A stretch of DNA of 64,000 nucleotides from a virus, in the IMG/VR virus record IMGVR_UViG_3300025154_000052, positions 64,001 through 128,000 of that record, one strand, 5' to 3'. The position numbers and the translations under genes are program-made. Below, piece after piece: positions 22,350-39,417 of the stretch (within the stretch, counting starts at the first letter, position 1; every line of letters starts with the position of its first letter). Below the pieces are notes generated by a model, which saw only the letters and a list, made by a program, of their open reading frames with translations, was not told the DNA's origin and did no database searches.

Positions 22350-23636
22350 ATGAATCTGAATGAGCAGCAGCAAGCAGCGCTCGAGCAGATGGGAACGTTC
22401 CTGAAGGGGAAGGAGCGTCACTTCCTGCTGGAAGGATTCGCCGGCACAGGGAAGACGTTCTCCGTCCAGCAATTCCTGCTGTCTGCCAGGGTGAAAAAAC
22501 TCGCCATAGCTGCACCCACCAACAAGGCGGTGAAGGTAATCCGCGACTTCGGCAAGACGACGGGACTGGATGGTGCTCACTACGCGACGGTTCACCGGCT
22601 ACTGGGCCTGAAGGCACAGGTGGACCCTGACACCGGGAAACAGGTGTTTGTACCCGATCCATGGAACAAGACCACGCTCGAGAACTTCGACCTCGTTGTC
22701 ATCGACGAGGCGTCGATGGTCGGGAAGCCGCTGTACGATCTCGTCTGCCGGTACATGGGCAAGAAGACGAAGATCGTCTGGATGGGTGACCCGGCGCAAC
22801 TTCCGCCAGTTGGGGAGAAACACTCGCCTGTGTTCTCGACGTCCAACAGAGTACTTCTGACTCAGATCATGCGACATGGTGGTTCCATCCAGGGTGCGGT
22901 GAACCTCGTTCGTGACCGCATCGGGAAGGGTGTGTTACCGGAGTTCCTGTCCTGCAACGACGGGAATGAGGGCGTCTGGTCTATCTCGAAGCGACAATGG
23001 CTTCAGCGGCTGGAAACCGACTTCACGAGCCAATCGTTCAAGGCTGACAGCGACTTCGTGCGAGCTGTTGCATGGACGAATCGGGTAGTGGACTGGGGCA
23101 ACAACCGCATCCACCGTGCCATCTACGGCGACGATGCTAAGCCGTTCATGCCGGGACAACGAGTCGTCGCTCGAGACCCGGTCGTGGACGGTGAAGAGAT
23201 CCTGATGACCACGTCCGAAGAGGCGACGGTCATCACCGCAGAACCGACTACGGCGAAGGGACTGGCCGCCTGGGAACTCAAACTGGAGATCGAGACGGGC
23301 ACCGGCTCATCCATCATCTACGTTCATGCACTGGACCCATCCGCTGAGATGTCGTTCCAGAACGAACTCGAGCGACTCAGAGCGCGGGCACTGTCCGCTA
23401 CCCCGCGTGACAAGTCCAGTGCATGGAGGGCCTATTACGCCTACCTGCAATACTTCGCCCCGCTGGGCCCAATCTATTGGAGCACGGTACATAAGGCCCA
23501 GGGGAGTACCTTTACCCGGTGCTATGTCGCGTTGGGAGACGTGAAGCGTAACCCGAACCGACTCGAGCGAGACCGGTGCATCTACACGGCATACACCAGA
23601 GCGGCGAAGCAGTTGGTGATCCCGAGTGGAAGTTGA
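22350..23636 (+). CDS. SF1B helicase, Dda/RecD-like
   Basis: GFAGTGKT, APTNKA, VIDEASMV, GDPAQLPPV, TVHKAQGSTF, YTAYTRA. Confidence 0.92.
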   Translation: MNLNEQQQAALEQMGTFLKGKERHFLLEGFAGTGKTFSVQQFLLSARVKKLAIAAPTNKAVKVIRDFGKTTGLDGAHYATVHRLLGLKAQVDPDTGKQVFVPDPWNKTTLENFDLVVIDEASMVGKPLYDLVCRYMGKKTKIVWMGDPAQLPPVGEKHSPVFSTSNRVLLTQIMRHGGSIQGAVNLVRDRIGKGVLPEFLSCNDGNEGVWSISKRQWLQRLETDFTSQSFKADSDFVRAVAWTNRVVDWGNNRIHRAIYGDDAKPFMPGQRVVARDPVVDGEEILMTTSEEATVITAEPTTAKGLAAWELKLEIETGTGSSIIYVHALDPSAEMSFQNELERLRARALSATPRDKSSAWRAYYAYLQYFAPLGPIYWSTVHKAQGSTFTRCYVALGDVKRNPNRLERDRCIYTAYTRAAKQLVIPSGS

Positions 23637-23663
23637 AGTGAAGCAACCAGAACAGGAGCAGTC

Positions 23664-24377
23664 ATGCAAGCACAACTGATAGCAGATGAAGCAACAATGG
23701 ATTGCCAGCGGGCATTCGTGCAGTTGGTACAGGTGGTTCAGCAGCAGACCGGTGAGCCGATGCGCTTTTCCGTCGAGCGATTGGCCAGACTTTCGCTTGA
23801 CAACGAACAGATCAACGAAGCGTTCTTGGTGCTCCGGCACTTCATGTACGTGAAAGGATGGACCGCCCAGGGGTTCTCCCAACGGTTCAAGAACGGTATC
23901 ACCTTGGATGGCGTATCTGTCGCGCTCGTTCCTTACGCAGCCGACAGGGATAAGCGGTGGCGCGTCGTCGACACCGTCCCCGAAGTGACACGGTGTCCCG
24001 ATGAGAAGCAGGATGTTCGTCACCTGCTCGATCGCATTGAGCAGGTGACGAACCAGTACGGGCGGGATGGCGCGGACATTGTCGAGTGGCTGAAGTTTGC
24101 ACTGGACGATCGGCTCGACTTCAGAGCGTCAGTTGGTGTCCTGGAAAACGAATTGCAGAGCCTGTGGACAAGGGCGCAAGACCTCGGTCTGCCCGTCGAA
24201 AGTGATGCCGGGAAGGTCGTGGACCAGATCATCAGTGAGATCGGCAGACTGCAGAAGAGCGCCGGCGTCGTCCGGAAGATCCGCAACCTCGTTCTGGACG
24301 TCGAAAGCGACGAACGGCCGCGAAGTCTCGCCACGGATGTGATCTCCGACATGTCAGACTCAGAGTGCCGTGTCTGA
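23664..24377 (+). CDS. hypothetical protein
   Basis: 237-aa ORF, AGGAG RBS. Confidence 0.65.
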   Translation: MQAQLIADEATMDCQRAFVQLVQVVQQQTGEPMRFSVERLARLSLDNEQINEAFLVLRHFMYVKGWTAQGFSQRFKNGITLDGVSVALVPYAADRDKRWRVVDTVPEVTRCPDEKQDVRHLLDRIEQVTNQYGRDGADIVEWLKFALDDRLDFRASVGVLENELQSLWTRAQDLGLPVESDAGKVVDQIISEIGRLQKSAGVVRKIRNLVLDVESDERPRSLATDVISDMSDSECRV

Positions 24378-24387
24378 TCTTTCCTCC

Positions 24388-24522
24388 TTGACCCGTTGCT
24401 TTCGCCTCGGTACAATCTCACCCAGCGACACCAGAGTTGAACCGGGAGCCCTGAACCGGGGTCCCCTCCAAAGTTAACTGGTGAAGCTATGCCCTTGGGT
24501 CGCGAGGCTCAGGGGCTTTTTT
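24388..24522 (+). ncRNA. candidate ~100-nt small RNA with own promoter and intrinsic terminator
   Basis: TTGACC-N17-TACAAT (24388-24416); 11-bp GCGA-loop stem 24491-24516 + T6. Confidence 0.6.
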
Positions 24523-24540
24523 GTTTACACCCCACGGAAA

Positions 24541-24583
24541 CATTAAAATGAGGATTGACTGATTCTCTAGCGTCGGCTATGAT
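24541..24583 (+). promoter_or_regulatory. CATTAAAAT-type promoter
   Basis: CATTAAAAT-N5-TTGACT-N17-TATGAT. Confidence 0.75.
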
Positions 24584-24617
24584 CTCAGGTAGCTGTATAA
24601 CACAGGGAGGACATAGC

Positions 24618-24914
24618 ATGCGTAAGAATTTCGTTCCCTCAGATTGCATTCACTACGAAGAGCCGGGGCAGATCGAGCGGTTGACCTACCGCGAAATCGA
24701 CAACAGACGCCTATATCTGGAGCATCCCGCACGGATGACCCGGGCCGATATGCTGGCGGGCAAAGCCGCTGACTGGACCGATGAGCGGGTGGATGCATAC
24801 GCCGCCCAGTTCACCCTACCGGCGCCTTTCCGCATGCACTGCACGGTCCAGGGCCCGGCGAGCGCTGCGCCCAATGCCCCTATGATCGTCATCTGCGACA
24901 TCCGGAGAAACTAA
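24618..24914 (+). CDS. hypothetical protein
   Basis: GGGAGG RBS before ATG 24618. Confidence 0.55.
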   Translation: MRKNFVPSDCIHYEEPGQIERLTYREIDNRRLYLEHPARMTRADMLAGKAADWTDERVDAYAAQFTLPAPFRMHCTVQGPASAAPNAPMIVICDIRRN

Positions 24915-24916
24915 CC

Positions 24917-26107
24917 ATGCCACGGGTGGAGGGCTACTGTCATCGGTGCGGAACGTGGCTTCGTATGGAGAAGGTTCCCGACCGTCGCACTGCCGACTGG
25001 CGATCTGCGAACCGCACCTTCACCTGTGATCCGTGCAAGGAGTTCATCAGACGAGAGCGTACGCGGATGGCAGCCAAAATCAATGCCGCTCGAGGCCGCC
25101 CTCCACTGGTAGGAAGCCAGTCCCAAATTGACTGGGCCGAGACAATCCGGCTCGAGGTTCTTCAGAAGGTGGAGGACGCCATCAATCGCATCTACATGGT
25201 GGACCCGGTGGCGAGTGCAGCAGACATATTCATGTGCCGCTCGCTTGGTGTGCAGGCGTGGGATCGGCTGCTGGTCGCCATCGAGGCGCTCGAGCAGCAG
25301 GACGATGCTCACTGGTGGATCGACAACCGAGAGTCCTTTCATGTCGGCATCATCGGTGAGATGGCTCGAGCCGTCCTGTCACCTGAGCAGGTGGAAGCCA
25401 AGGAGGCTCAAGAGGCGAACACCCAGGCCGCTATTGAGGATAGTACAATCGGTCCACCGATCGGTATCGCGCTTCAGTCTCCACTCCCCGTGGAGATTCG
25501 TGTTGGTTCGTCGATGGTGACCGCCCTTCTGCCTGACCGCCACGAGTCGTTCCGTGTACTGGTTCGGTCGCTCGGATACCGATGGAATCCAGACGTTCGT
25601 GTCTGGCAACGTCTAATCGATGATCGCAATGGTCCAAGCGATGACCGGGCCGTTGAACTTGCACATAGATTGCTGACGGCAGGCTTTCGGGTTTGTATCC
25701 ACGACTCGGTTCTGCGCCGACGAGTTGCCGCTGCCGAATTTATGCCTGAGCATACTCGGTGGATCATGCGCCGGGGCGAGGGCAAATATACCGGGTGGTT
25801 CGCCATCCAGTGGGCGCGTGGGGAGGATTACTACCAGCGCGCCAAGCGGCTGCCAGGCTCGAGATATGACAAGCCCTACGTTGTTGTGCCTTCGTCGGCT
25901 TACGAGTCGGTGGCAGATTTCGCGGAGTTGTATGACTTCAGATTCTCGGCTGTTGCCAATCAACTCCTTGAGCAGGCCGAGAAGGCGGTCCAGGCTACTC
26001 GCCTAGAGAAACTGGCCAAACGACTCGAGAAGCCAAAGCCGAAGGACGGGCTGAGAGAGATCCTGTCCACAACATCCGGAATCCCAGCCGAGTTACTTGA
26101 TGACTAA
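24917..26107 (+). CDS. conserved hypothetical protein preceding SNF2 helicase
   Basis: 396-aa ORF overlapping helicase start; N-terminal CxxC...CxxC. Confidence 0.7.
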   Translation: MPRVEGYCHRCGTWLRMEKVPDRRTADWRSANRTFTCDPCKEFIRRERTRMAAKINAARGRPPLVGSQSQIDWAETIRLEVLQKVEDAINRIYMVDPVASAADIFMCRSLGVQAWDRLLVAIEALEQQDDAHWWIDNRESFHVGIIGEMARAVLSPEQVEAKEAQEANTQAAIEDSTIGPPIGIALQSPLPVEIRVGSSMVTALLPDRHESFRVLVRSLGYRWNPDVRVWQRLIDDRNGPSDDRAVELAHRLLTAGFRVCIHDSVLRRRVAAAEFMPEHTRWIMRRGEGKYTGWFAIQWARGEDYYQRAKRLPGSRYDKPYVVVPSSAYESVADFAELYDFRFSAVANQLLEQAEKAVQATRLEKLAKRLEKPKPKDGLREILSTTSGIPAELLDD

Positions 26108-27533
26108 GACTGATCTCCTACCATTTCAGATTCCTGCCGTGGAAAAGCTTCAGCCGTTGCGTGTTGGGGCGCTCTTTATGGACATGGGGCTTGGCAAGAG
26201 CAGGGCCGCCATCGAACTCGTTGCGCGGCGGCAAGAGAAGATCAGTCGAGTCGTCTGGTTCTGTCCAGTCAGTCTGAAGGAGACGATTGAGTTTGAGATC
26301 CACAAGCATGTGGACACGGAGTCGCACCCGGTTTACGTCTTCGACGACAAGACACATCAGGGCGCAATCCCACGAGCGTTCTGGTACGTGATCGGGCTCG
26401 AGTCGATGGGTTCCAGCAGTCGAGTTATCCTGGCCGCTCGAGATCTGATGGACGAGAGCACATGTGTCATCGTGGACGAGTCGGACTTCATCAAGGGCCA
26501 CCGTTCGCAGCGGACCTGGTGGGTCACTGAGATCAGCAAAAACACTCGATATCGCCTCATCCTGAGTGGCACATCGGTTACCCAGGGTATCGTGGACCTT
26601 TACGCCCAGTTTCGCTTCCTATCCCCTCTCATCCTCGGGTATCGGTCATTCTACAGCTTTGCCGCGAATCATCTTGAGTACAGTGAGAAGTACCCGGGTT
26701 TGATCGTTCGGTCGCTCAACACCGGATACATCGCGGCGAAGATTGCGCCGTTCACCTATCAGGTGACGAAGGACGAATGTCTGACCTTGCCCAAGAAATT
26801 GTACGAGACGAGATATTTCGGAATGACACCACAACAGGAGATGACGTATCAGCAGGCGAAGTATGAACTCCTGATGGACGTGGACCCGGACGAGATGAAC
26901 TCGTGGGTCATCTTCCGGCTGTTCACGGCGCTCCAGCAGATCGTCTGTGGCTTCTGGAATCGACGGCCACCGCGAGAGAACCGGCGCGACCGTCCCGAAA
27001 TGGAGCACATCGATCTGCCACACTATCGTCTGGAGGTGCTTCAGGACGTGCTGGCGCGGATTCCAGGCGATGAGAAGGTGATCATCTGGGCCAAGTTCGA
27101 CTACGACGTACAGGGGATTATGGGCGCCTTAAACGCTCACTACGGAGCAAGCCAGGTCTCTCTGTTCTGCGGTAAGAACGCGGCGACACGAGATGAAGAA
27201 CTCGAGCGCTTCCGTGGTCCTGCCCGGTTCCTCGTTGCTACCCCGTCCAGTGGCGGGCGCGGTCTTACAGTCAACGATGCCCGATTCATGGTGTTCTACA
27301 ACAACGGGTTCAAATACAGCGAGAGGAAGCAAGCCGCTGATCGCAACTACCGGATCGGGCAGGATATGCCGGTCACGATTATCGACATCATCTGCAACGC
27401 TGGCATTGATCTCCGAATCATGGATGCACTGGCCACCAAACAAGGTGTGGTCCAGTCATTCCGACGTGAGGTCAAGAAACTTCGCGAGATGAAGGACGAA
27501 AAAAAATTCGCTGAGTTGGTCGCTTCGGTGTGA
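26097..27533 (+). CDS. SNF2-family (SF2) helicase
   Basis: LFMDMGLGKS, IVDESDFIK, RLILSGT, GGRGLT, QAADRNYRIGQ. Confidence 0.9.
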   Translation: MMTKTDLLPFQIPAVEKLQPLRVGALFMDMGLGKSRAAIELVARRQEKISRVVWFCPVSLKETIEFEIHKHVDTESHPVYVFDDKTHQGAIPRAFWYVIGLESMGSSSRVILAARDLMDESTCVIVDESDFIKGHRSQRTWWVTEISKNTRYRLILSGTSVTQGIVDLYAQFRFLSPLILGYRSFYSFAANHLEYSEKYPGLIVRSLNTGYIAAKIAPFTYQVTKDECLTLPKKLYETRYFGMTPQQEMTYQQAKYELLMDVDPDEMNSWVIFRLFTALQQIVCGFWNRRPPRENRRDRPEMEHIDLPHYRLEVLQDVLARIPGDEKVIIWAKFDYDVQGIMGALNAHYGASQVSLFCGKNAATRDEELERFRGPARFLVATPSSGGRGLTVNDARFMVFYNNGFKYSERKQAADRNYRIGQDMPVTIIDIICNAGIDLRIMDALATKQGVVQSFRREVKKLREMKDEKKFAELVASV

Positions 27534-27540
27534 TTTCCTG

Positions 27541-27569
27541 TTGACGCCGAATATACGTAAGCGTATATT
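27541..27569 (+). promoter_or_regulatory. promoter with palindromic operator in spacer
   Basis: TTGACG-N17-TATATT; aatatacg-taag-cgtatatt inverted repeat. Confidence 0.75.
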
Positions 27570-27601
27570 TAAGCCATACCACATCACATCGGAGATACAT
27601 C

Positions 27602-28018
27602 ATGGCCACCCAGATTAAGATTGAGCGCTTCGAAGGTCGGTCCCCTCGGTTCTGGTCCTTGATGGGACCGGTCTTTGCAGGTCGTGCGTACCGGAAGGAG
27701 TTCCCCCATCTGCACGACGATGAGGGCTATATCTGGTTCCTCGGTCTGGATGGTGACAAGGTGGCCGGTGGAGGCGCCTGTCACATAGTCGGCACGACCG
27801 GTCACCTTCACGGGATCTTCGTCATGCAGCCGTATGCCGGTGCCGGGCTGTATAGTCGACTGGTGAGCGAGCGGATCGATTTCATGCGCTCCAAGGGCGT
27901 CAAGGTAATCCGGATCAAGGCGTTCGCCTCGAGTGTTCCGGTGCTCGAGGCGCTGGGGTTCAAGGCCACAGGGAAGTTTGGGACGGTGGTCCCGATGGAA
28001 CTCAAACTGGAGGAATGA
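27602..28018 (+). CDS. GNAT-family acetyltransferase
   Basis: LHGIFVMQPYAGAGLYSRL acetyl-CoA motif; EALGF. Confidence 0.8.
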   Translation: MATQIKIERFEGRSPRFWSLMGPVFAGRAYRKEFPHLHDDEGYIWFLGLDGDKVAGGGACHIVGTTGHLHGIFVMQPYAGAGLYSRLVSERIDFMRSKGVKVIRIKAFASSVPVLEALGFKATGKFGTVVPMELKLEE

Positions 28019-28183
28019 ATGATGTTGTCACAGGAACAGCATGCGGCCAGGTTCGCCTATGTCGCGAAGTATCCTCACCTTAATTCTATCCGCGACTGGA
28101 GGACATTCTGTCTCAATGCCAGCAGGTTGAGTTGCGCGGGTATCCCGGTTCGTCACTTGTTGGTGATTACGAGAGACTAGGCC

Positions 28184-28384
28184 ATGACGGTTCAAGAAGT
28201 TGCGGCACGACTCGGGACGTCGATCCGAGTCGTGCAGGACATGTGTAAACGCGGCGTGCTCGGTGCCGTTCCCCCTCGGGACTGGGATGTGTGCCCCTTG
28301 TGCCTCGAAGAGTATGTGCTGAGACCTCGGGGCAAGGGACGCCGGCAGCCGAAACAGGTATGCAGTCACAGGAAGGAAACGTGA
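28184..28384 (+). CDS. HTH DNA-binding protein (excisionase/MerR-like)
   Basis: MTVQEVAARLGTSIRVVQDMCKRG. Confidence 0.75.
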   Translation: MTVQEVAARLGTSIRVVQDMCKRGVLGAVPPRDWDVCPLCLEEYVLRPRGKGRRQPKQVCSHRKET

Positions 28385-28551
28385 TGAGAGAAAAAGGAGC
28401 ATGGTACATCGAGACGTCGTCGGGGAGCATATATTACTACCACGTCAAGTTTGACGTGGCCGAACGGATGGCTCGTAAGATCGAGCGTGAGAGGGGTCTA
28501 CCTGAGTTCTCCCTGATGGTCCGGTGGTACGATGACTGGCAGAGGTGAGGT

Positions 28552-28845
28552 ATGCGTTTTCTTGTTGTACGCGCAGTGGCCCTTCTGCCGGATAATCTTC
28601 GGTTGGAGATTGAGGAGACCATCGAAGCGATTGGTTTCCATGGGATCGTCGAGCAGGTTGACGGGGTCGACTTCGATTACTCGACCATCCCAGGATTGGG
28701 CGATGGGTGCGTCATTCCGATTCCCGGCTTTCCGTTTGCGGATGCCGAGAACACTGAAGAGGCGATCACAGAGTACCGGCAGGGGCATAATGCCGGCGTG
28801 TTTGAGACCAGAGAGATGGCTGAGCGATTTACGAGGGATGAGTGA
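28552..28845 (+). CDS. hypothetical protein
   Basis: 97-aa coupled ORF. Confidence 0.55.
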   Translation: MRFLVVRAVALLPDNLRLEIEETIEAIGFHGIVEQVDGVDFDYSTIPGLGDGCVIPIPGFPFADAENTEEAITEYRQGHNAGVFETREMAERFTRDE

Positions 28846-29495
28846 TGTATTACAGATGCACGTTCCGCGACTGCACGCAGATCCTGATGTGTCGGGATCT
28901 GGAGGACCCGCAGACGATAGAGGATTACCGCAGGTTGATGCCGCCTCGGGTACGACTGGTATACTCGGACCCGCCGTGGAATCCCGGAAATGCCACCTAC
29001 TGGCGCACGCATGCGCAGATGGCCCCTTGCCCGTCATACGACCGGTTTCTCGATGCATTCATCTCTGTGGTCGGGCTCGCGGTGGAGCGCGGCGCCTTTG
29101 ACCTACTCATTGAGCAGTCGATCAATGAGGCGCACAGCGATTACCTGCTACGGGCGCTCGAGCGCAATGTGGTGCTCATGCCTCTTCGTCGCAGATACGA
29201 GGTCATCTATTCGGGAAGACCGAATGCCCTGTTCCACTTCGGTATGCGTGACCTGCATACCGACCCGACCGGGATGTCGGAGGATGAGATGACTCTGCGC
29301 GCATGCGTAGGTGTATGGGCACCTGTCGGCTCGTGGGTCGTCGAACCATGCGTCGGCAAGGGCATGACAAGCCGGGCCGCTCACGCTCTCGGGTGGAATC
29401 TGATTGGCAGCGAGTTGGCCCAACACAGGCTCGATATCACGCTGAAATGGCTCGAGCGGCGTGGGTATCGTGTTGAGGAGCGGTATGATCCATGA
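28842..29495 (+). CDS. beta-class N4/N6 methyltransferase-like protein
   Basis: VYSDPPW followed by VVEPCVGKG...IGSEL. Confidence 0.75.
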   Translation: MMYYRCTFRDCTQILMCRDLEDPQTIEDYRRLMPPRVRLVYSDPPWNPGNATYWRTHAQMAPCPSYDRFLDAFISVVGLAVERGAFDLLIEQSINEAHSDYLLRALERNVVLMPLRRRYEVIYSGRPNALFHFGMRDLHTDPTGMSEDEMTLRACVGVWAPVGSWVVEPCVGKGMTSRAAHALGWNLIGSELAQHRLDITLKWLERRGYRVEERYDP

Positions 29496-29835
29496 CGCTT
29501 GGATGGTCTTGATAAGGCGCGAGTATTTTTTGAGGTCCTTCGCCCGCAAGATCGCCCAAGTGGACATAGTTTTTGAGTTCAACGGGGGCCCGATAGGTGT
29601 TTACTGCCCACATGTGGATAAGTCTGGCTTTTTCCGCGTCGGTCCGATATGGGTTCATCCGGACTATCGCGGCAAGGGCTATTGCAGCGCCTTTGTCGCA
29701 TCAGTGACGAAAGGTAAAAAGGCGCGCGCCCTGATCGAGGACACCAACGAGGCTTCTCAGCGGGCGTTCTCTGCCGCCGGATTCATACTCCAGGGAAGAG
29801 GGAATAGAATCAGTTCCTGGTGGGTGAAGCCGTGA
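29461..29835 (+). CDS. GNAT-family acetyltransferase
   Basis: IWVHPDYRGKGYC, NEASQRAFSAAGF. Confidence 0.85.
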   Translation: MGIVLRSGMIHDAWMVLIRREYFLRSFARKIAQVDIVFEFNGGPIGVYCPHVDKSGFFRVGPIWVHPDYRGKGYCSAFVASVTKGKKARALIEDTNEASQRAFSAAGFILQGRGNRISSWWVKP

Positions 29836-30698
29836 TCCACATCGGACTCGACACCGCCTCGAAATCTCGCGTGGTCGGGGAACTCTGCCAGCGCGAGGAT
29901 ATCAACCGCGTGGTTATCATCTCGACGATTGGCAGAGAGTTTCCCTGCGCTCACAGTCGCTACGAAGTGGTGACTTATGAACAAGTCATCCAATACGCTT
30001 ACTTCTATAGGCTTCTGCAGGAGATAGACAAACGGACGCTGGTTGTAGTCAACGAGTGCCTGCGGACGCAGAACCGGCACGACCTGACCTATAATTGCAT
30101 CCGCCACTTTTTGAACCAGGCCGGGCATGTACTGGTGTTCCAATACCTACCGCTGATCGACACCGCAGAGGACTTCAGTATCCTCTTCGACTTTGACACT
30201 CAGAGCCGGTGGAAGCGGTCGAAGTTCGCGGACCTGCCGCTCGAGGAAGCACGGCTGGAGGTGGCACCTCGACGGCTCGAGTTCAGCAACACCGACGTCC
30301 GCGTGTCGCCCTCGTTCCGTGCCCGCTACCTGGCCGAGAAGGAGCGGCTGTTCGCCAACCTGGGTGCCAGTGACCCCCACACGCTACCACGCAACCTGCA
30401 CCTGTTTACCGGCCGGCCCAAGTTGGGTGCTATGGATCCTTCGAGGCAGTACGTCTGTCGTAACGGGCGTTTCAACGAGCCCAGCCTGACCACCTATGAA
30501 AACGCCCAGCCCGGGCGGGAATACGCCATCTTCGAGTGGTGCCATCGATACATCGACTTCACCGACTTCCTTTGGACGACGGGCCAGGACCGATTTGATG
30601 TACTCAGCACGGACCTGCCGGTAGATCAGTGGTATCTGCAACGGTATACGGATTGGAGGGATAAGTTGGATGCCTGCTATTCAGCGATACAGCGATAA
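29820..30698 (+). CDS. hypothetical protein, possibly a degenerate SF2-helicase domain
   Basis: TLVVVNECLR resembles a degenerate DExx box; no Walker A. Confidence 0.55.
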   Translation: MGEAVIHIGLDTASKSRVVGELCQREDINRVVIISTIGREFPCAHSRYEVVTYEQVIQYAYFYRLLQEIDKRTLVVVNECLRTQNRHDLTYNCIRHFLNQAGHVLVFQYLPLIDTAEDFSILFDFDTQSRWKRSKFADLPLEEARLEVAPRRLEFSNTDVRVSPSFRARYLAEKERLFANLGASDPHTLPRNLHLFTGRPKLGAMDPSRQYVCRNGRFNEPSLTTYENAQPGREYAIFEWCHRYIDFTDFLWTTGQDRFDVLSTDLPVDQWYLQRYTDWRDKLDACYSAIQR

Positions 30699-31797
30699 GA
30701 CGGTTTTGGAAGCTGCCAGGGAGCGCATCGCCTTTCTCTTCGATCACTACGAGACAATCCACGTTTCTATCAGTGGAGGGAAGGACTCGACGGTGCTTGC
30801 TCATCTGGCGCTGCTCGAGGCATATCGACGCGGGCGCAAGGTGGGCCTGTTCCTACTCGACGAGGAGGCCATGTACCAGAGTTCTGTGGACCAGGTCGAA
30901 TACCTGATGAGCCTGTTCCCGGAGAACTGTAATCGCCTATGGCTTCAGGTGCCGTTCTACCTGACCAATGCCACCAGTTTGACAGAGAGCCAGTTACAGG
31001 CATGGGAGCCAGGCAAACACAAGATCTGGATGCGTTCCAAAGGGGAGGGGAATATTAAGGCTCCTCCATGGGCTGGGCCTCCTAAATTCCGAACAGGTTA
31101 TTCCTGGCTGGATTTCTACGGCGTGATCGACAACTTCGAAGCCTGCTATGAGAACACAGTTTTTCTGGTCGGCCTACGAGCTGCTGGCGAGTCCCCCAAC
31201 CGGTGGCGCGCCGTCACCAAGAACCCGGTCACGGTGGCAGGTCAGGATGTCTACTGGGGCACTCAGAAGGGGCGAAATATCGCCTTCTACCCCATCTACG
31301 ACTGGAACTTCAGCGACGTGTGGAAGTACATTGCGATCAACGGATTGCGTTACTCCCGCGTCTATGACTGGCAGTTCAAGAAGGGATTCGGCATTTCAGA
31401 GATGCGCGTTTCGAGCCTCATTCACGAGCGCTCCTTCAAAAGTCTTGTAGAACTCCCGGAGTTTGAGCCGAAGACCTACGACCGGCTGTGCAAACGCATC
31501 AAGGGCATCCAGTTCGCTCAGGAGACCGGCAAGAACGCCAAGATGATGAAGTGTCGGAAGTTGCCGAAGAACTTCACATCCTGGCGCGTTTACCGGAACT
31601 TCCTGCTTGAAACCTACCCGGTAGCCGACCACAAGCCGACCTTCGAGCGGCGTTTTGCCCGACAACTAGATAACGAGTACGTGGCCAGGCAGCAGTGCCG
31701 ACAACTGGTACTCAACGACTACGAAAACAACCTTCATGTGGACAACAAGCCAGACCCACGTGAAGAGTTGATCGAATACTATCGGAGGGTGCTGTGA
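30670..31797 (+). CDS. IbrA/YbdN-like PAPS-reductase family protein (copy 1)
   Basis: VLEAARERI, SISGGKDS, LVGLRAAGESPNR, YPIYDWNFSDVW, MRVSSLIH. Confidence 0.9.
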   Translation: MPAIQRYSDKTVLEAARERIAFLFDHYETIHVSISGGKDSTVLAHLALLEAYRRGRKVGLFLLDEEAMYQSSVDQVEYLMSLFPENCNRLWLQVPFYLTNATSLTESQLQAWEPGKHKIWMRSKGEGNIKAPPWAGPPKFRTGYSWLDFYGVIDNFEACYENTVFLVGLRAAGESPNRWRAVTKNPVTVAGQDVYWGTQKGRNIAFYPIYDWNFSDVWKYIAINGLRYSRVYDWQFKKGFGISEMRVSSLIHERSFKSLVELPEFEPKTYDRLCKRIKGIQFAQETGKNAKMMKCRKLPKNFTSWRVYRNFLLETYPVADHKPTFERRFARQLDNEYVARQQCRQLVLNDYENNLHVDNKPDPREELIEYYRRVL

Positions 31798-32300
31798 AGA
31801 TTCTCTTCCCGTGTCTCAATACCTTCATGGTGCCACGTGTCCGCGTCGTGGCTAACAACTGGAATCCCAACCACGTGAGTTCGGACAAGATGCGGCTACT
31901 CATGCAGTCCATCATCGATAATGGTTGGTGTTTCCCTATTGTGACGGTTCATGATTCGGACGAAGACGTTTATCGTGTGGTCGATGGCTTCCACCGTTGG
32001 ACGATTGCCGGCCCCGAATGGCTAGACTTGCCGGAGGTTCCGATCGTAGTCATCGCTGTGTCTGTTGCCCAGCGGATGGCCGCGACAGTCCAATTCAACA
32101 AGGCACGTGGGGTCCACCAGGTAGATCTTGACGCCGACCTGATCCGGGCGCTCATCGAACAGGGCATGAGCGAGGAAGAGATCTCTTTGCATCTCAGTAT
32201 CGAGATGGAAACCATCCACCGCTACAAGTCACTGACCGGAATAGCGGCTCTCTTTGCCAATGCCACATGGTCCACGGCATGGACCATGGAGGAGACGTGA
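31794..32300 (+). CDS. IbrB/YbdM-like ParB/Srx domain protein (copy 1)
   Basis: ANNWNPN, SIIDNGWCFPIV, VVDGFHR, FNKARG. Confidence 0.9.
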   Translation: MKILFPCLNTFMVPRVRVVANNWNPNHVSSDKMRLLMQSIIDNGWCFPIVTVHDSDEDVYRVVDGFHRWTIAGPEWLDLPEVPIVVIAVSVAQRMAATVQFNKARGVHQVDLDADLIRALIEQGMSEEEISLHLSIEMETIHRYKSLTGIAALFANATWSTAWTMEET

Positions 32301-33376
32301 TCCCGAATGGGTGCAAACTCTACCTACCCAAGAACGTTCTCGAGGCCGCTATTGAGCGTATAGCCTGGATATTCGACCATTACGAGAACGTCTGTGTCTC
32401 CGTCTCGGGAGGAAAGGATAGTTCCGTGCTGGTCGAACTGGCACGGCGTGAGGCCGAGAGACGTGGACGGGTGATTCACGTTTTCTTTCTCGACCAGGAA
32501 GTTGAGTACCGTTCCACGGTTGAAGTCATGCGGTACATCATGACTCGCCCGGCTGTAAAGGCACACTGGGTACAGGTCCCCATCCGAATGACGAACGCCA
32601 CATCCTATGAGGACGAGTTCTTGTATGCCTGGGGACCGGGTGAGGAATGGGTCAGGCCGAAGGAGCCCGACTCCATCCATGAACTCCCGGATGCACCAGA
32701 TCGATTCTACTCGTTCTTCGACTGGTGGGAAGCCCAGTGGCCTGAGAACACAGCGTGTCTTGTCGGTCTTCGGGCCGAAGAGAGTCTAAATCGGTTTGGC
32801 GCTGTGACCCGTCATCCTGCCATTCCAGGCATCAACTGGTCGTCTCCTGGCGGCGGGAAGAGCATTAAGTTCTACCCTCTCTACGACTGGACGTTCGAGG
32901 ACATCTGGACGTTCATCGGCAACGAGGGACCGGTCTACAACCGCGTCTATGACTGGATGTGGGCCAAGGGGCGAAACATCGGAGATCTTCGGGTCTCCAA
33001 CCTCATTCATGAGCGTGCGTTCAAGAGCCTGGCTGACCTTCAGGAGTTCGAGCCCGATACATACGATGCGCTCATTCGCAGGCTAAAGGGTGTGCACACA
33101 GCTGCTCTGTACAGTCGAGAGCAGATGGTGTTCAGCACGAAGAAACGGCCAGCGCAGTTCTCATCCTGGCGAGCGTACCGAGACTTTTTACTCGAGACGC
33201 TTCCGAACGAGAGACGACAACAATTTCTCGAGCGGTTCGGAAATCAACTCCAGAGCGAATCCGTGTTCCGGCAGCAGGTCCGCCAGCTCCTGCTGAACGA
33301 TTGGGAGAACAACATCCCGGTGGTCCAGCAGCCGGATCGGCCGAACCCATTACTGAAGTGGATGGACATCCTATGA
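32267..33376 (+). CDS. IbrA/YbdN-like PAPS-reductase family protein (copy 2)
   Basis: NVLEAAIERI, SVSGGKDS, VGLRAEESLNR, YPLYDW, RVSNLIH. Confidence 0.9.
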   Translation: MVHGMDHGGDVIPNGCKLYLPKNVLEAAIERIAWIFDHYENVCVSVSGGKDSSVLVELARREAERRGRVIHVFFLDQEVEYRSTVEVMRYIMTRPAVKAHWVQVPIRMTNATSYEDEFLYAWGPGEEWVRPKEPDSIHELPDAPDRFYSFFDWWEAQWPENTACLVGLRAEESLNRFGAVTRHPAIPGINWSSPGGGKSIKFYPLYDWTFEDIWTFIGNEGPVYNRVYDWMWAKGRNIGDLRVSNLIHERAFKSLADLQEFEPDTYDALIRRLKGVHTAALYSREQMVFSTKKRPAQFSSWRAYRDFLLETLPNERRQQFLERFGNQLQSESVFRQQVRQLLLNDWENNIPVVQQPDRPNPLLKWMDIL

Positions 33377-33933
33377 GCCAGATCACATTCCCTTGTTGCC
33401 ATGTGCAGATGGTTACTGCTGTTAAGGTGGTATCCAACGACTACAACCCTAACAACGTGGCAACGCCAGAGATGGACCTGCTTGCCCTCTCCATCGAAGA
33501 GGATGGAGTTACTCAGCCCATCGTTGTTGTTTATGATCCGGTCCTGGATCTGTATGTGGTGGTGGATGGCTTCCACCGGTACACCATCCTGACAAAGAGG
33601 TTCAAGTGTCCAGAGATCCCGGTGGTGGTGATCGACAAGTCCATCAATGACCGCATGGCCTCCACCATTCGGCATAATCGAGCTCGTGGCAAGCACAAGG
33701 TAGACATGATGTCTGTCCTTGTCGAGAAGCTTCTCAAACTCGGCTGGAGCGACACCGACATCGCGAAGCAGTTGGGGATGGAGGCAGAGGAGGTGCTTCG
33801 GCTCAAGCAGATGACCGGGTTGGCGGGCCTGTTCAAGGGCCAGGGTTACAGCCGATCATGGACACGCCCGGAAGGGGCGCCGCTATTCCAGGACGAGCCC
33901 ACCAATGATGACGACCGGGAAGACTCCGAGTAG
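33373..33933 (+). CDS. IbrB/YbdM-like ParB/Srx domain protein (copy 2)
   Basis: SNDYNPN, SIEEDGVTQPIV, VVDGFHR, TIRHNRARG. Confidence 0.9.
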   Translation: MSQITFPCCHVQMVTAVKVVSNDYNPNNVATPEMDLLALSIEEDGVTQPIVVVYDPVLDLYVVVDGFHRYTILTKRFKCPEIPVVVIDKSINDRMASTIRHNRARGKHKVDMMSVLVEKLLKLGWSDTDIAKQLGMEAEEVLRLKQMTGLAGLFKGQGYSRSWTRPEGAPLFQDEPTNDDDREDSE

Positions 33934-33943
33934 TCCAGCGATA

Positions 33944-33986
33944 CATTAAAATACCTGTTGATTAGTACGTCGATCACCTATATACT
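33944..33986 (+). promoter_or_regulatory. CATTAAAAT-type promoter
   Basis: CATTAAAAT-N5-TTGATT-N17-TATACT. Confidence 0.75.
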
Positions 33987-33991
33987 GAGTC

Positions 33992-34651
33992 ATGGCTACT
34001 GTGGAGGCTGTGACGAGTATGCATGTCCTGACTACCCCCAATTACCCACCCGGCTATGTCGCGATAGACAACCCTGGCGACATAGCCGTCCTTGACCTCG
34101 AACATTGCTCCATCAAAGACCCCGTCACCCTTGTCATTATGAAGGACTGGAGACCGCGCGCCCAGTACTGCACTCAATTAGAGTACGGCTGGACGGCTCG
34201 ACTATCACAGCCTCGAGGGCCGGGTAACGAGAGGACCCCTACCTATTTTGAGATTTATGCCGAGCGTGACGACTTCGACCGTACACAGGCATGCTGGACG
34301 CTCACAGGTTTGACCATCCAACAGGCTATCCATGAGATTCAGGAGATGGCGCCCATCGTTAAAGACTGGTTCGATCAACGGGAAGGCGTGAACGCTGCAC
34401 AGTCGCTCGAGGACCTGTTGACGCTCATCAAGGAGAACCATCCATCTACACGCCTTCCCAGTGGTGGTCGCAGGGTGCGCTGGCCCAAGTTCGGAGGACC
34501 AGTCATTCCACATCCGTGGGTAATCTCATGGGATGAAGAGCGCGCACTGGTGTGTAATTTCGATTACGCCGACATCGTGACCAGGGGCGATGTCGAAGAC
34601 ATGTGGCAGGAGTGGAAACGTGGTGAACCGTCACGATGCCCCAAAGACTGA
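33992..34651 (+). CDS. hypothetical protein
   Basis: 219-aa co-oriented ORF. Confidence 0.55.
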   Translation: MATVEAVTSMHVLTTPNYPPGYVAIDNPGDIAVLDLEHCSIKDPVTLVIMKDWRPRAQYCTQLEYGWTARLSQPRGPGNERTPTYFEIYAERDDFDRTQACWTLTGLTIQQAIHEIQEMAPIVKDWFDQREGVNAAQSLEDLLTLIKENHPSTRLPSGGRRVRWPKFGGPVIPHPWVISWDEERALVCNFDYADIVTRGDVEDMWQEWKRGEPSRCPKD

Positions 34652-35096
34652 GGCTGAGCTACTTCAGAAGCGTGAACGGGTAGCCCGACAAGTCAGGGCT
34701 GTCTTTCGCGGTGAACCTGTCCGGTGTGGGTGTGGCTGGGTCCCTCCTACTCTATCCATCTATCGGTGCTACTACTGCGCCGAGTGGTACTGCGAGCGGT
34801 GCGCCCCCGATCACTTCGGGGGCAAGCGTGAAGCGATTGCGAGCGTCACTCAAAGTGGAGGACATCATGAGACTCGGAACGAAGCATGTGGAGATTGAGC
34901 CAGGTGTCTCGCCGCGTCAGCGTGGTGCAAGTTGGCCCGTGATGGACGGCAGCAACCTCATTGGCACGGTCAGGCGTGAACGTCATCGCCAGCAGGGATA
35001 TCAAGCGGTCGTCACAGTCTGTGGGCAAGAAATTCATGTGAGCGGTCACCGTCGTAAGGATGTCTTGTCTCGTCTTCGTCGCCGTGTGGCGAGTCT

Positions 35097-35678
35097 TTGA
35101 GTGAGGAGTATTGGCATGAAGGTGTTAGCCAAGAAGGAGTGGGCTTCTCATCTACGAGTGGTCCGCCTGTCGATGGAGTGGAAGTTGGAGGACTTTTGGG
35201 TCGGTGCATCCTGGCGACGTCAGCCAGGGCATCTTCAAGTCTGGGCCTGTTTGGTTCCGTGCCTCCCGATTCATCTCAGTTGGACGCGGCTGTAATCGAA
35301 GACCCCAGGATCATGAGGCATGCAGTGAAGACCGTTCTTGACCAGTGGCTCGAGCGTGTGAAGCGCAATGCAGAACCGTTCATCTCGGCAGAAGAGCAGG
35401 GACAGATCCTGCGGTGTATTGATGACCTTGACGACGCCTGTACGCCTCGACCGCCACAACCGGAGTGGTTCGGTACGGGTCCGGGGCAGTGGGATTCGTG
35501 GACAATACTTGGACTAGGCCAGCCTGGCAAGTGGCGACCCATTCAAAGGTCGAAGCACTGGCAATACTACGTCGAGTTGATGTTGGTGACGGGCGGGTGC
35601 CTCGTTGTCCCTGTTCGTCGTCCGCCCGATCCGCCTGCGATGGATGTTGGGTGGGGAGTTATAGATGGGAGTAAATAG
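35097..35678 (+). CDS. hypothetical protein
   Basis: 193-aa co-oriented ORF. Confidence 0.5.
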   Translation: MSEEYWHEGVSQEGVGFSSTSGPPVDGVEVGGLLGRCILATSARASSSLGLFGSVPPDSSQLDAAVIEDPRIMRHAVKTVLDQWLERVKRNAEPFISAEEQGQILRCIDDLDDACTPRPPQPEWFGTGPGQWDSWTILGLGQPGKWRPIQRSKHWQYYVELMLVTGGCLVVPVRRPPDPPAMDVGWGVIDGSK

Positions 35679-35680
35679 AA

Positions 35681-36310
35681 ATGATGTATCTCGATGATTT
35701 CACTGACGGTATTGATGTGCTGGCAAAGGCGTGTGAGCGTGCAGGCATTTCAGACCCCGGATATGGTCCGGATGGAGTGGAGTGTGACCCTGACTTGACG
35801 CCAGAAGAGATGACACTTTTACGGCGATGCGGATGGATCAGAATCCAACTCAATGGGCGAGTGCTTTGGACAACCCATATGCAGATCGACCATGAGAAAA
35901 CCACGCTGGCCGGCATTCCCAACAGCGAGTTGGGCACAAAGGTTTTATCCTGGTATCGCAGTGGTGATCACGGCATCTCCTCTGAGTATCTGGCTGCCAC
36001 TGCACTGGACGATACGGCGTGGGTTGCGAGACTTCGCCTGAGTGCGCCATGGCCTCACGATGCCAGCGACTTCGGGCGATGTTATCGACTGGTGGAGCAG
36101 ATTCCAAAAGTAAAGGAACTCGCTTTTGCCAGACTGGCCGATCATCCGGTGTGGGGCAAGCTCGTCGCCGCGTGGGACGATCTTTCTGCACAATACCTGA
36201 AGGCGTTGCAGGAGAGTAAGGACCAGGAAAGCCTTCTAAAAGGGCAGCGGCGCTATCCGATCTCCACACGCCTTCACAACCGTATCAAGAGGTGTGGTCA
36301 TCATCAATAG
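35681..36310 (+). CDS. hypothetical phage protein
   Basis: W...GDHGISS...PHDASDFGRCYRLVEQIP motif common in phage proteins. Confidence 0.65.
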   Translation: MMYLDDFTDGIDVLAKACERAGISDPGYGPDGVECDPDLTPEEMTLLRRCGWIRIQLNGRVLWTTHMQIDHEKTTLAGIPNSELGTKVLSWYRSGDHGISSEYLAATALDDTAWVARLRLSAPWPHDASDFGRCYRLVEQIPKVKELAFARLADHPVWGKLVAAWDDLSAQYLKALQESKDQESLLKGQRRYPISTRLHNRIKRCGHHQ

Positions 36311-36732
36311 GTCTATGCACGCCACATGAAGGGAGGCAACAATTGAAGGGTGACAGGCTGTTCAAATGGTTCGGTAACTACATCGTTGCGCCGTCGATTG
36401 ACGCGGCGTGGCAGGGCCTTCAGGAACAATTCGTCGATGAACCTGATGTGAAAGGCGGGTTCCATTCGATGGAGGAAGTCGCTGAACACTACTACACTGA
36501 TCGTCAGGATCTCTGGCCATTGTATCAGAGTGTCAACGCTCGAGAGTATCTGGCTGCCGTCGATCCGTGCGAGTATGTGGAACTGGTGGAATATGAACTT
36601 CCGTCGTCGCATGTGCGCGTGTCGGGCACCGTTACTGAAGGATTGGAACCTCCAGTGTTTCTGGCCCGCGCCGAGGCTCGTGTGTGGGCTGAACTGCTTC
36701 CCACCGGGTTCATCTACAAGGCTGACTATTGA
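36292..36732 (+). CDS. hypothetical protein
   Basis: 146-aa co-oriented ORF. Confidence 0.5.
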   Translation: MWSSSIGLCTPHEGRQQLKGDRLFKWFGNYIVAPSIDAAWQGLQEQFVDEPDVKGGFHSMEEVAEHYYTDRQDLWPLYQSVNAREYLAAVDPCEYVELVEYELPSSHVRVSGTVTEGLEPPVFLARAEARVWAELLPTGFIYKADY

Positions 36733-36873
36733 TGGATATGCAAGCGATTGTGGACGAGTTGCAGCGGGTGCTGGCGCTACTTGTGTCGATAGAGATGATC
36801 GCAGGTGACGGCAGGATGTCACCCGACTGGCGGCTGATCAGGATAGCGGACTTGGCGCGGAAGGTGGTGAGGG

Positions 36874-37821
36874 ATGAGGTTTTACCTGGGGACTCATCAG
36901 ACGGGATGGCTGTTCGACCAACGACTGATTGGTGTTCCCTTGTTCGTCAGCCGGAGAACACTGAATCCGTTGCGACTTTCTAAATTAAAAGGCCCACAAG
37001 CACCTGACTCCCGAGTCATCCGTATTGATATGCGCCTCGACGCATCGGGGCGATGGGTTCCCGTTGCAGTAGATGGGGACGGGTGCGTCTTGCCGGTCAA
37101 AAGTCGCAAGCCGTGGCGGCGTGCTGTCACTCGCTGGGCGCTGGACTCTGGTGGATTTCAGGAACTTGATCTGCACGGTAAATGGACGGTACCCGCTCGA
37201 CAGTACGTGGAAGAAGTCCGGATCTGTGCAGAGGAGATTGGCGGTCTTGACTGGGCTGCTATTCAGGACTGGATGTGTGAGCCTCGAATCAGAGAGAAGA
37301 CAGGTCTGTCCACGGAAGAACACCAGAAGCGGACGATTGCATCGTACCTTGAACTTTCCTCCATGGCACCAGATCTGCCGTGGGCACCGGTCATCCAAGG
37401 GTGGTCCCTCTGGTCGTATTTCCGACATCTTGAGATGTACGACAAGGCTGGAATCGATCTGAGGAAGTTCAAAGTGGTGGGTGTGGGAAGTGTTTGCCGG
37501 CGCCAGGGAACGTATGAAGCAGCCGGGATTATGGAGTCCCTTGCTCGAGAAGGCATACGTCTTCACGGCTTCGGCTTCAAGCAACTGGGCTTGAAGATGG
37601 CAGCGGCTTCTATGACTAGTGCCGACAGTCTGGCGTGGTCGTTCGAAGCTCGACGGGCAGCTATCGCCAACGGACAGGCGTTTACTCATCGGCTGTGCCA
37701 TGACCCAATAGCCACTCATCAGAACTGCGCGAATTGTCTTGAGTGGGCGCTGATGTGGCGGCGGTATGTGCTGGATTCAATTGAGCATGGTGAGAGCCAG
37801 GTTCAGATGGGGCTGTTCTAA
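36874..37821 (+). CDS. DpdA-like (tRNA-guanine-transglycosylase fold) deazapurine DNA-modification protein
   Basis: FYLGTH, WALDSGGF, QDWMCEP, PVIQG, GVGSVCRRQ, LHGFG, SADSLAWS. Confidence 0.82.
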   Translation: MRFYLGTHQTGWLFDQRLIGVPLFVSRRTLNPLRLSKLKGPQAPDSRVIRIDMRLDASGRWVPVAVDGDGCVLPVKSRKPWRRAVTRWALDSGGFQELDLHGKWTVPARQYVEEVRICAEEIGGLDWAAIQDWMCEPRIREKTGLSTEEHQKRTIASYLELSSMAPDLPWAPVIQGWSLWSYFRHLEMYDKAGIDLRKFKVVGVGSVCRRQGTYEAAGIMESLAREGIRLHGFGFKQLGLKMAAASMTSADSLAWSFEARRAAIANGQAFTHRLCHDPIATHQNCANCLEWALMWRRYVLDSIEHGESQVQMGLF

Positions 37822-38891: not shown

Positions 38892-38893
38892 AC

Positions 38894-39376: not shown

Positions 39377-39417
39377 GATACCTCCGTTTACCCACCGTCA
39401 GGTGGGTGTCTAGTGTG

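Follow-up and report, generated by a model that had tools for sequence, protein, structure and literature searches.

What would a phage do with two diverged copies of the IbrA/IbrB gene pair, set in one run of genes with a SNF2-family motor, a methylase and two acetyltransferases? The question is raised by positions 24917-33933 of the window, the whole 64,000-nucleotide stretch of viral DNA analyzed here (bases 64001-128000 of the linear, 137,577-bp IMG/VR record IMGVR_UViG_3300025154_000052, ~87% complete by CheckV). A preliminary description, made from the sequence alone, had listed these genes and proposed that they form an undescribed DNA-modification system. We found that they belong to a cassette conserved across distant viral and bacterial contigs, with the two Ibr pairs falling in separate clades, and we put the chances at about even that the cassette would act as a post-replicative DNA-marking machine for phage counter-defence, its two pairs having different specificities.

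Every gene listed previously was recovered on the plus strand with the same coordinates. Proteins were scanned against Pfam, PHROG, NCBIfam and PADLOC, and ten cluster proteins were used in searches for the partners of known systems. The features of the region are as follows (nt, nucleotides; ORF, open reading frame; HTH, helix-turn-helix).

24917..26107, +: u396, overlapping the SNF2 start by 11 nt
26097..27533, +: SNF2-family ATPase (PF00176 and PF00271)
27602..28018, +: GNAT1 acetyltransferase (PF00583)
28019..28180, +: small ORF u53, beginning 1 base after the GNAT1 stop
28184..28384, +: predicted small DNA-binding protein of the HTH_17 (MerR/excisionase) type (PF12728)
28384..28548, +: small ORF u54, its ATG overlapping the HTH stop by 1 nt
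28552..28845, +: small ORF u97, with a GTGA overlap at the methylase start
28842..29495, +: predicted small beta-class amino-methyltransferase, DPPW followed by VGKG
29461..29835, +: GNAT2 acetyltransferase (PF00583, PF13508)
29820..30698, +: u292, with a Snf2-like fold in an AlphaFold model; likely start GTG 29832, in a GTGA overlap
30670..31797, +: IbrA1 (PF01507 and PF11922, DUF3440)
31794..32300, +: IbrB1 (ParB_N and a C-terminal HTH-like segment)
32267..33376, +: IbrA2 (PF01507 and PF11922, DUF3440)
33373..33933, +: IbrB2, its ATG at 33373 overlapping the IbrA2 stop (ATGA); the TTG at 33301 given in the preliminary description is also open
24555..24583, +: sigma-70-like promoter candidate upstream of u396/SNF2 (TTGACT-17-TATGAT, 10/12)
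27541..27569, +: promoter candidate for the GNAT1-to-IbrB2 run, within a 68-nt gap (TTGACG-17-TATATT, 10/12)

All of the genes are co-oriented, running from u396 and SNF2 through GNAT1, small ORFs including the HTH gene, the DPPW methylase, GNAT2 and u292 to IbrA1-IbrB1-IbrA2-IbrB2. The only sizeable intergenic gap, of 68 nt, precedes GNAT1; from 27602 to 33933, neighboring ORFs overlap or lie ≤3 nt apart, several of them at ATGA or GTGA junctions. The genes are translationally coupled, SNF2 to u396 among them. The promoter candidates are consensus matches only, and the regional total of such sites was not above that of shuffled sequence. A minus-strand ORF at 28028-28402 was judged spurious, the HTH_17 match lying on the opposite strand.

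Conservation of the cassette

Related loci were collected in two steps: six IMG/VR contigs were found with IbrA1, and 80 more IbrA loci plus ten GTDB genome loci with u292 were then added. Their ORFs were scanned by phmmer and by hidden Markov models (HMMs) built from the window families; the ORF calls were our own and flanks in the HMM surveys were 8-10 kb, so absences are soft. A quick maximum-likelihood tree of 91 IbrA sequences placed IbrA1 inside a u292-linked clade (clade 1, support 100) and IbrA2 with two other loci (L027 and L026, support 95), in a neighboring grade of simpler cassettes near the IbrA of Flavobacterium phage FCL-2 type. The two copies are 49% identical (44% for IbrB1 and IbrB2); their separate placement bears out the earlier view that they are not a recent duplication, and the two pairs are ancient paralogues.

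The order u292-IbrA-IbrB was invariant in 16/16 distinct clade-1 viral contigs, u292 immediately preceding IbrA each time. All 16 also had a homologue of the DPPW methylase next to these genes, immediately downstream of IbrB in some and immediately upstream of u292 in the others. The methylase belongs to the core of the cassette and is not an extra, a point absent from the preliminary description. Within the fetched flank, SNF2 was present in nine of these contigs and u396 in seven, while a GNAT lay beside the methylase or u292 in three, among them L016, whose methylase-GNAT-u292-IbrA-IbrB order is that of the window; GNAT-u292 recurs in L014 and L098. The first six IMG/VR contigs read either u396-SNF2-u292-IbrA-IbrB or u292-IbrA-IbrB, and a 137-kb Logan relative reads u396-SNF2-IbrA-GNAT-IbrB.

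The cassette extends into bacterial genomes. Nine GTDB genome contigs from Chloroflexota, Gammaproteobacteria, Acidobacteriota, Bacteroidota, Desulfobulbales and Myxococcota (sources including Caldilineaceae, Methylomonas/Methylomarinum, Acidobacteria, Bergeyella, Desulfobulbales and Myxococcota) carry SNF2-u292-IbrA-IbrB-methylase. In the isolate genome of Bergeyella porcorum (L097:1-20867) this five-gene order is part of a prophage, flanked on one side by tail/endolysin genes and on the other by a second lysin gene.

IbrB accompanied IbrA in 86 of 87 loci, the exception being a truncated locus. In the other IbrA clades IbrB often occurs as two ParB paralogues, SNF2 is adjacent in 11 loci, and seven loci have a GNAT next to the pair or inserted within it. 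A GNAT is embedded between IbrA and IbrB in L012, L051, L055 and L090, and relatives of GNAT1 itself lie between or beside them in L012, L057, L090 and L092. Two isolate phages have SNF2 directly beside the pair: FCL-2 encodes an SNF2-like protein (gp07), a ParB protein (gp08) and IbrA (gp09) between terminase and portal, and Streptococcus phage PY4 carries an SNF2-like helicase, IbrA and IbrB side by side. Of the 223 isolate-phage records in which an IbrA homologue was detected, each has a single copy. A second natural doubling of the module was found at L021:4799-9643, where two tandem, diverged u292-IbrA-IbrB triplets are followed by one methylase. In L027 and L024, whose IbrA is IbrA2-like, the ORFs that separate SNF2 from IbrA were compared with the u292 profile, without a significant match (E 0.13-0.14). 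Long "IbrB" ORFs in some loci were considered as fusions and set aside, since Pfam detected no domain in them other than ParB_N, and in some none at all; the ORFs were probably called too long.

Short PAPS_reduct proteins (260-285 amino acids; PAPS, 3'-phosphoadenosine-5'-phosphosulfate) that lack DUF3440 also recur at these loci (L004:8357-9139, L016:5405-6259, L018:10292-11083, L100:4071-4868 and others). Such a gene adjoins the cassette methylase, with a 4-nt overlap in L016 and L018; in L004 it abuts u292 instead. In L016, the combined size of the short protein and the methylase resembles that of a Vibrio phage PAPS::Dam fusion considered below; homology is not established.

The window holds all six families, [u396]-SNF2-u292-IbrA-IbrB-methylase, with u292 directly upstream of the clade-1 IbrA. 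Its order differs in that the methylase lies upstream with GNAT2, as in L016, and there are two additions, the second Ibr pair and the block formed by GNAT1 and the HTH gene. From the gene content, the window looks like a merger in which the six-gene type (with GNAT2) has been joined by IbrA2/IbrB2, a pair from the simpler cassettes, and by an acyltransferase of the GNAT1 type, because GNAT1-type genes elsewhere lie between IbrA and IbrB, the two GNATs are unrelated and the Ibr pairs fall in separate clades.

The preliminary description had asked whether these genes stay together in other phages and had treated them as one pathway. They do: SNF2, the degenerate helicase, IbrA, IbrB and the methylase are found as a group in distantly related contigs, viral as well as bacterial, in the same order in >25 independent contigs and with the GNATs as recurrent inserts, so that functional coupling is well founded. 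A full-text literature search found no published description of the cassette, and for the literature searched the term "undescribed system" holds. New here are the Snf2 fold of u292, the domains of u396, the conserved cassette itself and the derivation of the Ibr pairs from two clades; particular to the window are its two pairs, two GNATs, relocated methylase and inserted HTH block, and a DNA transglycosylase gene, DpdA, in the same phage.

The cassette proteins

The SNF2 gene encodes SNF2-rel_dom and Helicase_C, both above Pfam cut-offs (PF00176, 5.5e-14; PF00271, 1.9e-9; phrog_62, 8e-89), with a motif I of the GxGKS/T form and a motif II of the DExx form. The cassette homologues all keep GLGKS as motif I and DES as motif II, and the protein is predicted to be an active double-stranded DNA (dsDNA) translocase.

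Its neighbor u396 (396 amino acids; model pLDDT, the predicted local distance difference test, 85) had been listed simply as a conserved protein. It earns that name, as its homologues adjoin SNF2 genes at other loci (L005, L007-9, L012, L013, L019, L023, L071, L081, L086, L091, L093 and L096). The four family collections yielded no Pfam match and a sole PHROG match, to the unannotated phrog_16123 (1e-13). Invariant among its homologues are an N-terminal CxxC...CxxC zinc ribbon and the motifs GSEKQ..WAE.IR and AHWWI. By its motifs and position, u396 would be an accessory subunit of the SNF2 motor.

Structural comparison divided u396 further. Residues 189-264 resemble the XPB N-domain (structural Z 5.8/5.4) and residues 279-348 the T4 UvsW N-domain (structural Z 4.9), both of which have been described as structural relatives of the SMARCAL1 HARP domain. 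Pfam HARP matched none of ten u396 homologues, and BLASTP detected no internal repeat between the two small domains. Among the Atlas structural neighbors of the model are N-terminal parts of SNF2 proteins, with TM (template modeling) scores of 0.4-0.49. SMARCAL1, T4 UvsW and XPB are superfamily 2 (SF2) motors with a small substrate-recognition domain (HARP, DRD). The cassette likewise pairs an SNF2 motor with small alpha/beta domains, but these lie on a separate polypeptide together with a zinc ribbon and an AcrIF23-like domain. A split SMARCAL1-like arrangement of u396 and SNF2 is, from the models, plausible rather than established.

The AcrIF23-like part (residues ~51-153) is a helical module that matched AcrIF23 (7FIA) with E 2.8e-6 by profile against PDB and with a structural Z of 4.7. 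The anti-CRISPR proteins AcrIF23 and AcrIE7 have in common with u396 the GSEKQ..WA..IR / A.WWI..R signature; AcrIE7 shares its GSEKQ..WA..IR module weakly. In contrast to AcrIF23, u396 has extra domains and a dedicated SNF2 partner. Distant homologues of AcrIF23 often adjoin helicases (2026 NAR paper, PMC13551039), and the module may serve to bind SF2 helicases in general, with no special tie to CRISPR.

The 292-residue u292 gave no match in Pfam, PHROG, NCBIfam or PADLOC, and none of its 658 metagenomic homologues has a Pfam domain. The preliminary description had called it a degenerate helicase-like ORF, and this call was right. An AlphaFold (AF2) model from a 30-sequence alignment (pLDDT 88; predicted TM score 0.84) matched ISWI, Chd1, INO80 and Snf2h (Foldseek E 1e-7 to 1e-5) over a two-lobe Snf2 fold with degenerate ATP motifs: motif I retains an invariant G and K separated by a three-residue insertion, with no GxGKT, and motif II reads NEC, aligned with the DES of the cassette SNF2s. 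The model suggests that u292 is a conserved Snf2 paralogue that is probably non-hydrolyzing.

In the methylase, DPPW lies upstream of the VGKG (CVGKG) S-adenosylmethionine motif, the beta-class order, which is kept in 14 homologues; E91, Y123 and the DPP and GxG motifs are among the positions conserved in the family. PF01555 matches only the C-terminal part (19.8 bits against a cut-off of 26.7). By tblastn, neither u292 nor the methylase matched any of 50,697 phage records, and in the data searched both families are known only from uncultivated viral or metagenomic DNA and a few genomes.

The two acetyltransferases are unrelated by BLASTP. Both pass the 20.7-bit cut-off of PF00583 (GNAT1, 41.7 bits, 1.6e-10; GNAT2, 25.8 bits, 1.4e-5), and GNAT2 also matches PF13508 (~1e-5). 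As to the suggested likeness to phage Mu Mom, a DNA adenine acyl-modification enzyme, the Pfam and PHROG scans listed generic acetyltransferase families only and nothing Mom-like, which weakens it somewhat, no direct comparison with a Mom sequence having been made. Among the small ORFs, the HTH protein falls just under the PF12728 cut-off (E 9.9e-6; 26.2 bits against 27) and is not conserved in other cassettes, u54 and u97 have no family match, and u53 is window-specific, with no homologues in related loci and a doubtful coding status.

Both IbrA proteins contain PAPS_reduct and DUF3440 above Pfam cut-offs (IbrA2: PF01507, 8e-15, and PF11922, 6e-13) and belong to phrog_2302 (5e-80 for IbrA1, 5e-92 for IbrA2). 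Their partners, each adjacent to and co-oriented with its IbrA, carry the DGxHR and N.ARG.H motifs (DGFHR in IbrB1) and belong to phrog_2159 (3e-43 and 3e-63); ParB_N scored just below the cut-off in IbrB1 (3.5e-5) and about at it in IbrB2 (5.6e-6). IbrA1 and IbrA2 both keep the SGGKDS PP-loop and 37/37 family-conserved residues, which for IbrA are those shared by at least 93% of 87 homologues. IbrB2 keeps 31/31 family-conserved residues and IbrB1 29/31. Because conserved and catalytic residues are kept in both, both pairs look functional.

The 87 IbrA sequences are invariant in their SGGKDS PP-loop and at many Arg, Asp and Trp positions, and no cysteine column reaches 85%. A four-cysteine pattern occurs in only 27 of the 87; the window copies, which read ASCN and ASVN there, differ in this from that part of the family. 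Elsewhere IbrA is only loosely placed in the PAPS-reductase/CysD/DndC superfamily, far below every NCBIfam and PADLOC cut-off, and IbrB shows faint similarity to the ParB-fold kinases SerK and SbnI. A search of the literature and PDB found no solved structure or biochemical study of either protein; in PDB, IbrA came closest in sequence to CysD and FAD synthase, and IbrB to Noc/Spo0J.

The same two-gene unit, a PAPS_reduct + DUF3440 protein beside a ParB_N protein, is found in E. coli as IbrA/IbrB (ECOR-9 island) and YbdN/YbdM (K-12), and the phage pairs annotated "PAPS reductase/ParB-like" fall in the same PHROG families as those of the window. Compared with the E. coli pair, that of the window is doubled and embedded in a larger cassette with SNF2 and its helper, a dead SNF2, a methylase and GNATs. 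The original genetics of E. coli IbrA/IbrB is reportedly that of Sandt and colleagues in 2002.

The phage that carries the cassette

The run lies in a rightward early/replication block. Features elsewhere in the window that bear on the lifestyle of the phage and on DNA marking are listed below.

44846-45946, -: integrase, directly beside tRNA-Thr(CGU), the pair spanning 44846-46106
59748-60089: tRNA-Glu(UUC) and tRNA-Lys(UUU), just upstream of the large terminase
61144-62940: large terminase
36874-37821, +: DpdA, a DNA 7-deazaguanine transglycosylase (PF23859, E 1.1e-68; phrog_1279)
2038-3558, 3836-4666 and 393-1208, -: neighborhood of a third PAPS_reduct gene, a radical-SAM-like gene and a PP2C phosphatase gene
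15701-17116, 54252-55457 and 55552-56568, +: three further methyltransferase genes (DUF4942-methyltransferase fusion; phrog_56-type)

The phage is large and temperate; its integrase adjoins tRNA-Thr. It also encodes a Dda-like helicase, a deoxynucleoside monophosphate phosphatase and several methylases. Position 34 of tRNA-Glu(UUC) and of tRNA-Lys(UUU) is normally a 2-thiouridine, and anticodon nucleases target both tRNAs. Beside the integrase, on the leftward side, the G+C content of 40001-44000 rises to 63-64%, against ~57%.

DpdA was not in the preliminary description; it lies 3 kb downstream of the cassette and outside it, and it was not found in related cassette loci by tblastn or HMM surveys. 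QueC was not found in the 137.6-kb record (~87% complete), the QueC model giving a sub-threshold 12.7 bits on the PP-loop of IbrA2. With no QueC detected, the phage would have to obtain preQ0 from its host or through genes in the ~13% that the record lacks. Casting IbrB as DpdB and IbrA as a QueC substitute was rejected, as PADLOC returned no DpdB match and DpdA was not found in the surveyed related loci.

Because it encodes DpdA and several other methylases, this phage invests heavily in DNA marking, with an unusually large set of DNA-marking genes. The third PAPS_reduct protein (506 amino acids; phrog_424/12882) is not of the IbrA type, lacking DUF3440, and lies next to the radical-SAM-like protein and near the PP2C phosphatase; the PAPS_reduct and radical-SAM-like genes may form another modification module, distinct from the cassette.

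Just upstream of the cassette, at 24388-24516 (+), a promoter-like site (TTGACC-17-TACAAT) is followed ~75 nt on by a strong terminator-like hairpin and T-run, with no ORF between. This is a candidate small RNA, without an Rfam match; there were none in 23600-39500. The whole 9-kb region had no megablast match in the 50,697 phage records.

Candidate functions

DNA is the favored substrate of the cassette because a dsDNA translocase, a ParB/HTH protein and a DNA amino-methylase are fixed members of it. We infer DNA modification from precedents, namely the ParB partners of DpdA and of a thymine dioxygenase and a PAPS::Dam fusion. DpdB is a ParB-like ATPase needed for preQ0 insertion by DpdA (summarized in PMC12839542), and a phage thymine dioxygenase needs its cognate ParB, ParB176, specifically on dsDNA (PMC13229309). 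As in the cassette, DpdA/DpdB and 5mYOX176/ParB176 set a small ParB-fold protein, needed on dsDNA, beside a DNA modifier; they differ from it in that the partner of IbrB is a PP-loop enzyme, not a transglycosylase or dioxygenase, and no PADLOC DpdB model matched. In a Vibrio phage, a PAPS-reductase domain physically joined to an adenine methylase serves counter-defence, allowing escape from host Dnd (Piel et al., bioRxiv 10.1101/2021.05.05.442762). In several cassettes a short PAPS_reduct gene overlaps the methylase gene, as separate genes rather than a fusion.

On these precedents, DNA marking could proceed as follows. IbrB would load or activate IbrA on dsDNA, as DpdB does for DpdA and ParB176 for thymine dioxygenase; IbrA, with ATP, would adenylylate a group on DNA, leading to the addition of a non-sulfur nucleophile. 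Activation by adenylyl transfer with a non-sulfur nucleophile is favored because IbrA has no conserved cysteine and no Dnd or Ssp partners were found in the scanned proteins. The SNF2 motor and its dead paralogue u292 would give the enzymes duplex access and processivity, and the methylase and GNATs would add or finish further marks. The two Ibr pairs probably differ in target or sequence context, like phages that stack several methylases, and the outcome would be marked phage DNA that blunts restriction-type host defences.

In its most specific form the proposal is that Ibr cassettes install a new ATP-dependent, adenylylation-mediated, non-sulfur modification of dsDNA, with IbrB as loader and the Snf2 motor and dead paralogue providing access; in this phage two pairs would make two marks, decorated further by methylase and acyltransferases, in a genome that perhaps also contains 7-deazaguanine. 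We hold this version tentatively, as possible rather than probable.

Several observations weigh against DNA marking for counter-defence. No modified base and no substrate of IbrA is known from anywhere in the family, and PP-loop/PAPS-reductase-fold enzymes usually act on small molecules or tRNA, just as GNATs and small methylases can target proteins or RNA. The papers found assign IbrA/IbrB no role beyond co-activating or regulating the expression of prophage genes. The link between u292 and the cassette SNF2s is weak in sequence (hhalign probability 4.9%, E 0.008, with a sensible motif II/III register), and the HARP-like label of u396 depends on Z scores of only 5-6, a range that the search tool calls common. 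Finally, the position of the Bergeyella cassette is typical of accessory cargo, often genes that benefit the lysogen, and fits defence too.

The last point leads to a different reading, a phage-borne, restriction-like defence or superinfection exclusion system (compare BREX and DISARM), in which the methylase, perhaps with IbrA, marks resident DNA while SNF2 and IbrB, a ParB-fold "nuclease", act on incoming DNA that is unmarked. A methylase with helicases and a PAPS-reductase-fold protein does resemble BREX type 4 and DISARM, SNF2 gave partial PADLOC matches to ZorD, DpdE and DrmD, the cassette adjoins lysis genes in the Bergeyella prophage, and the phage of the window is temperate. Yet no PADLOC model matched u396, u292, the GNATs or the IbrBs, and the matches of IbrA to DndC and BrxP are weak and partial (BrxP only with IbrA2, at 2e-5, with no other BREX model matched by the ten cluster proteins). 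Those proteins also include no PglZ, BrxC, DrmA/B or recognizable effector nuclease. The placement of SNF2-IbrB-IbrA between terminase and portal in FCL-2, and its presence in other isolate phages, would be unexpected for defence cargo. We regard this explanation as unlikely.

The E. coli pair suggests another role, one with no covalent chemistry. IbrAB is known there only genetically, as a prophage gene activator, and activation of prophage eib genes is the sole reported phenotype of the family; IbrB might bind phage or host DNA and, with IbrA and SNF2, displace silencing or nucleoid proteins, turning genes on. SNF2 enzymes in general strip DNA-bound proteins, E. coli ybdNM is under the control of YbdO, and ybdO is reported to be H-NS-regulated. 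The ParB homologue KorB is a transcription clamp (cited in PMC13229309). A regulator or remodeler of this kind is, in our estimate, quite unlikely, as it leaves unexplained the PP-loop catalytic site invariant in 87 sequences, the fixed DNA methylase and recurrent GNATs, and the doubled modules with diverged paralogues.

The sulfur or backbone chemistry of the DndC/SspD type that the preliminary description had raised was weakened by our results. DndBCDE and SspABCD likewise employ a PP-loop, PAPS-reductase-fold enzyme that acts on DNA alongside a ParB-fold protein (DndB), and IbrA could be a DndC/SspD-like sulfurtransferase that phosphorothioates DNA, or a decoy that disarms host Dnd, as the resistance conferred by the Vibrio fusion might suggest. 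However, the window differs from Dnd/Ssp in its SNF2 and methylase partners and in an IbrA with no conserved cysteine. The DndC equivalog TIGR03183 scored 22 bits against a cut-off of 290, PADLOC DndC matches to IbrA (E 3e-6 to 6e-5) were partial with no independent stretch, and scans of the ten cluster proteins against Pfam, NCBIfam and PADLOC turned up no cysteine desulfurase (DndA), DndD/E or SspB/C. The short cassette PAPS_reduct protein had no BLAST match in Vibrio phage records. Because the cysteines and these partners are lacking in the proteins scanned, sulfur, phosphorothioate or thiolation chemistry by the cassette appears unlikely, and we consider phosphorothioation or its counteraction, taken as an explanation of the whole, improbable.

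Chance juxtaposition of early-region genes, which would suit only the GNAT1-HTH-small-ORF block (27602-28845) that is not conserved elsewhere, is excluded because the same order and orientation, with overlapping stop and start codons, recur in >25 independent contigs across phyla.

IbrA/IbrB pairs are common, occurring in 223 isolate-phage records, in hundreds of metagenomic relatives and, as ybdNM, in E. coli K-12. The analysis replaces vague labels ("PAPS reductase", "partition protein", "co-activator") with a testable hypothesis of DNA-directed chemistry, in which the pair is the center of a fixed machine with a DNA motor and a methylase. The window makes a useful test case, since one genome combines two intact, diverged pairs, two different GNATs and DpdA. 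If DNA marking by the cassette is true, the PP-loop proteins would be a new enzyme class in phage DNA modification, ParB-fold proteins would have another case of activating DNA-modifying enzymes, and the E. coli orphans ybdNM would gain a function.

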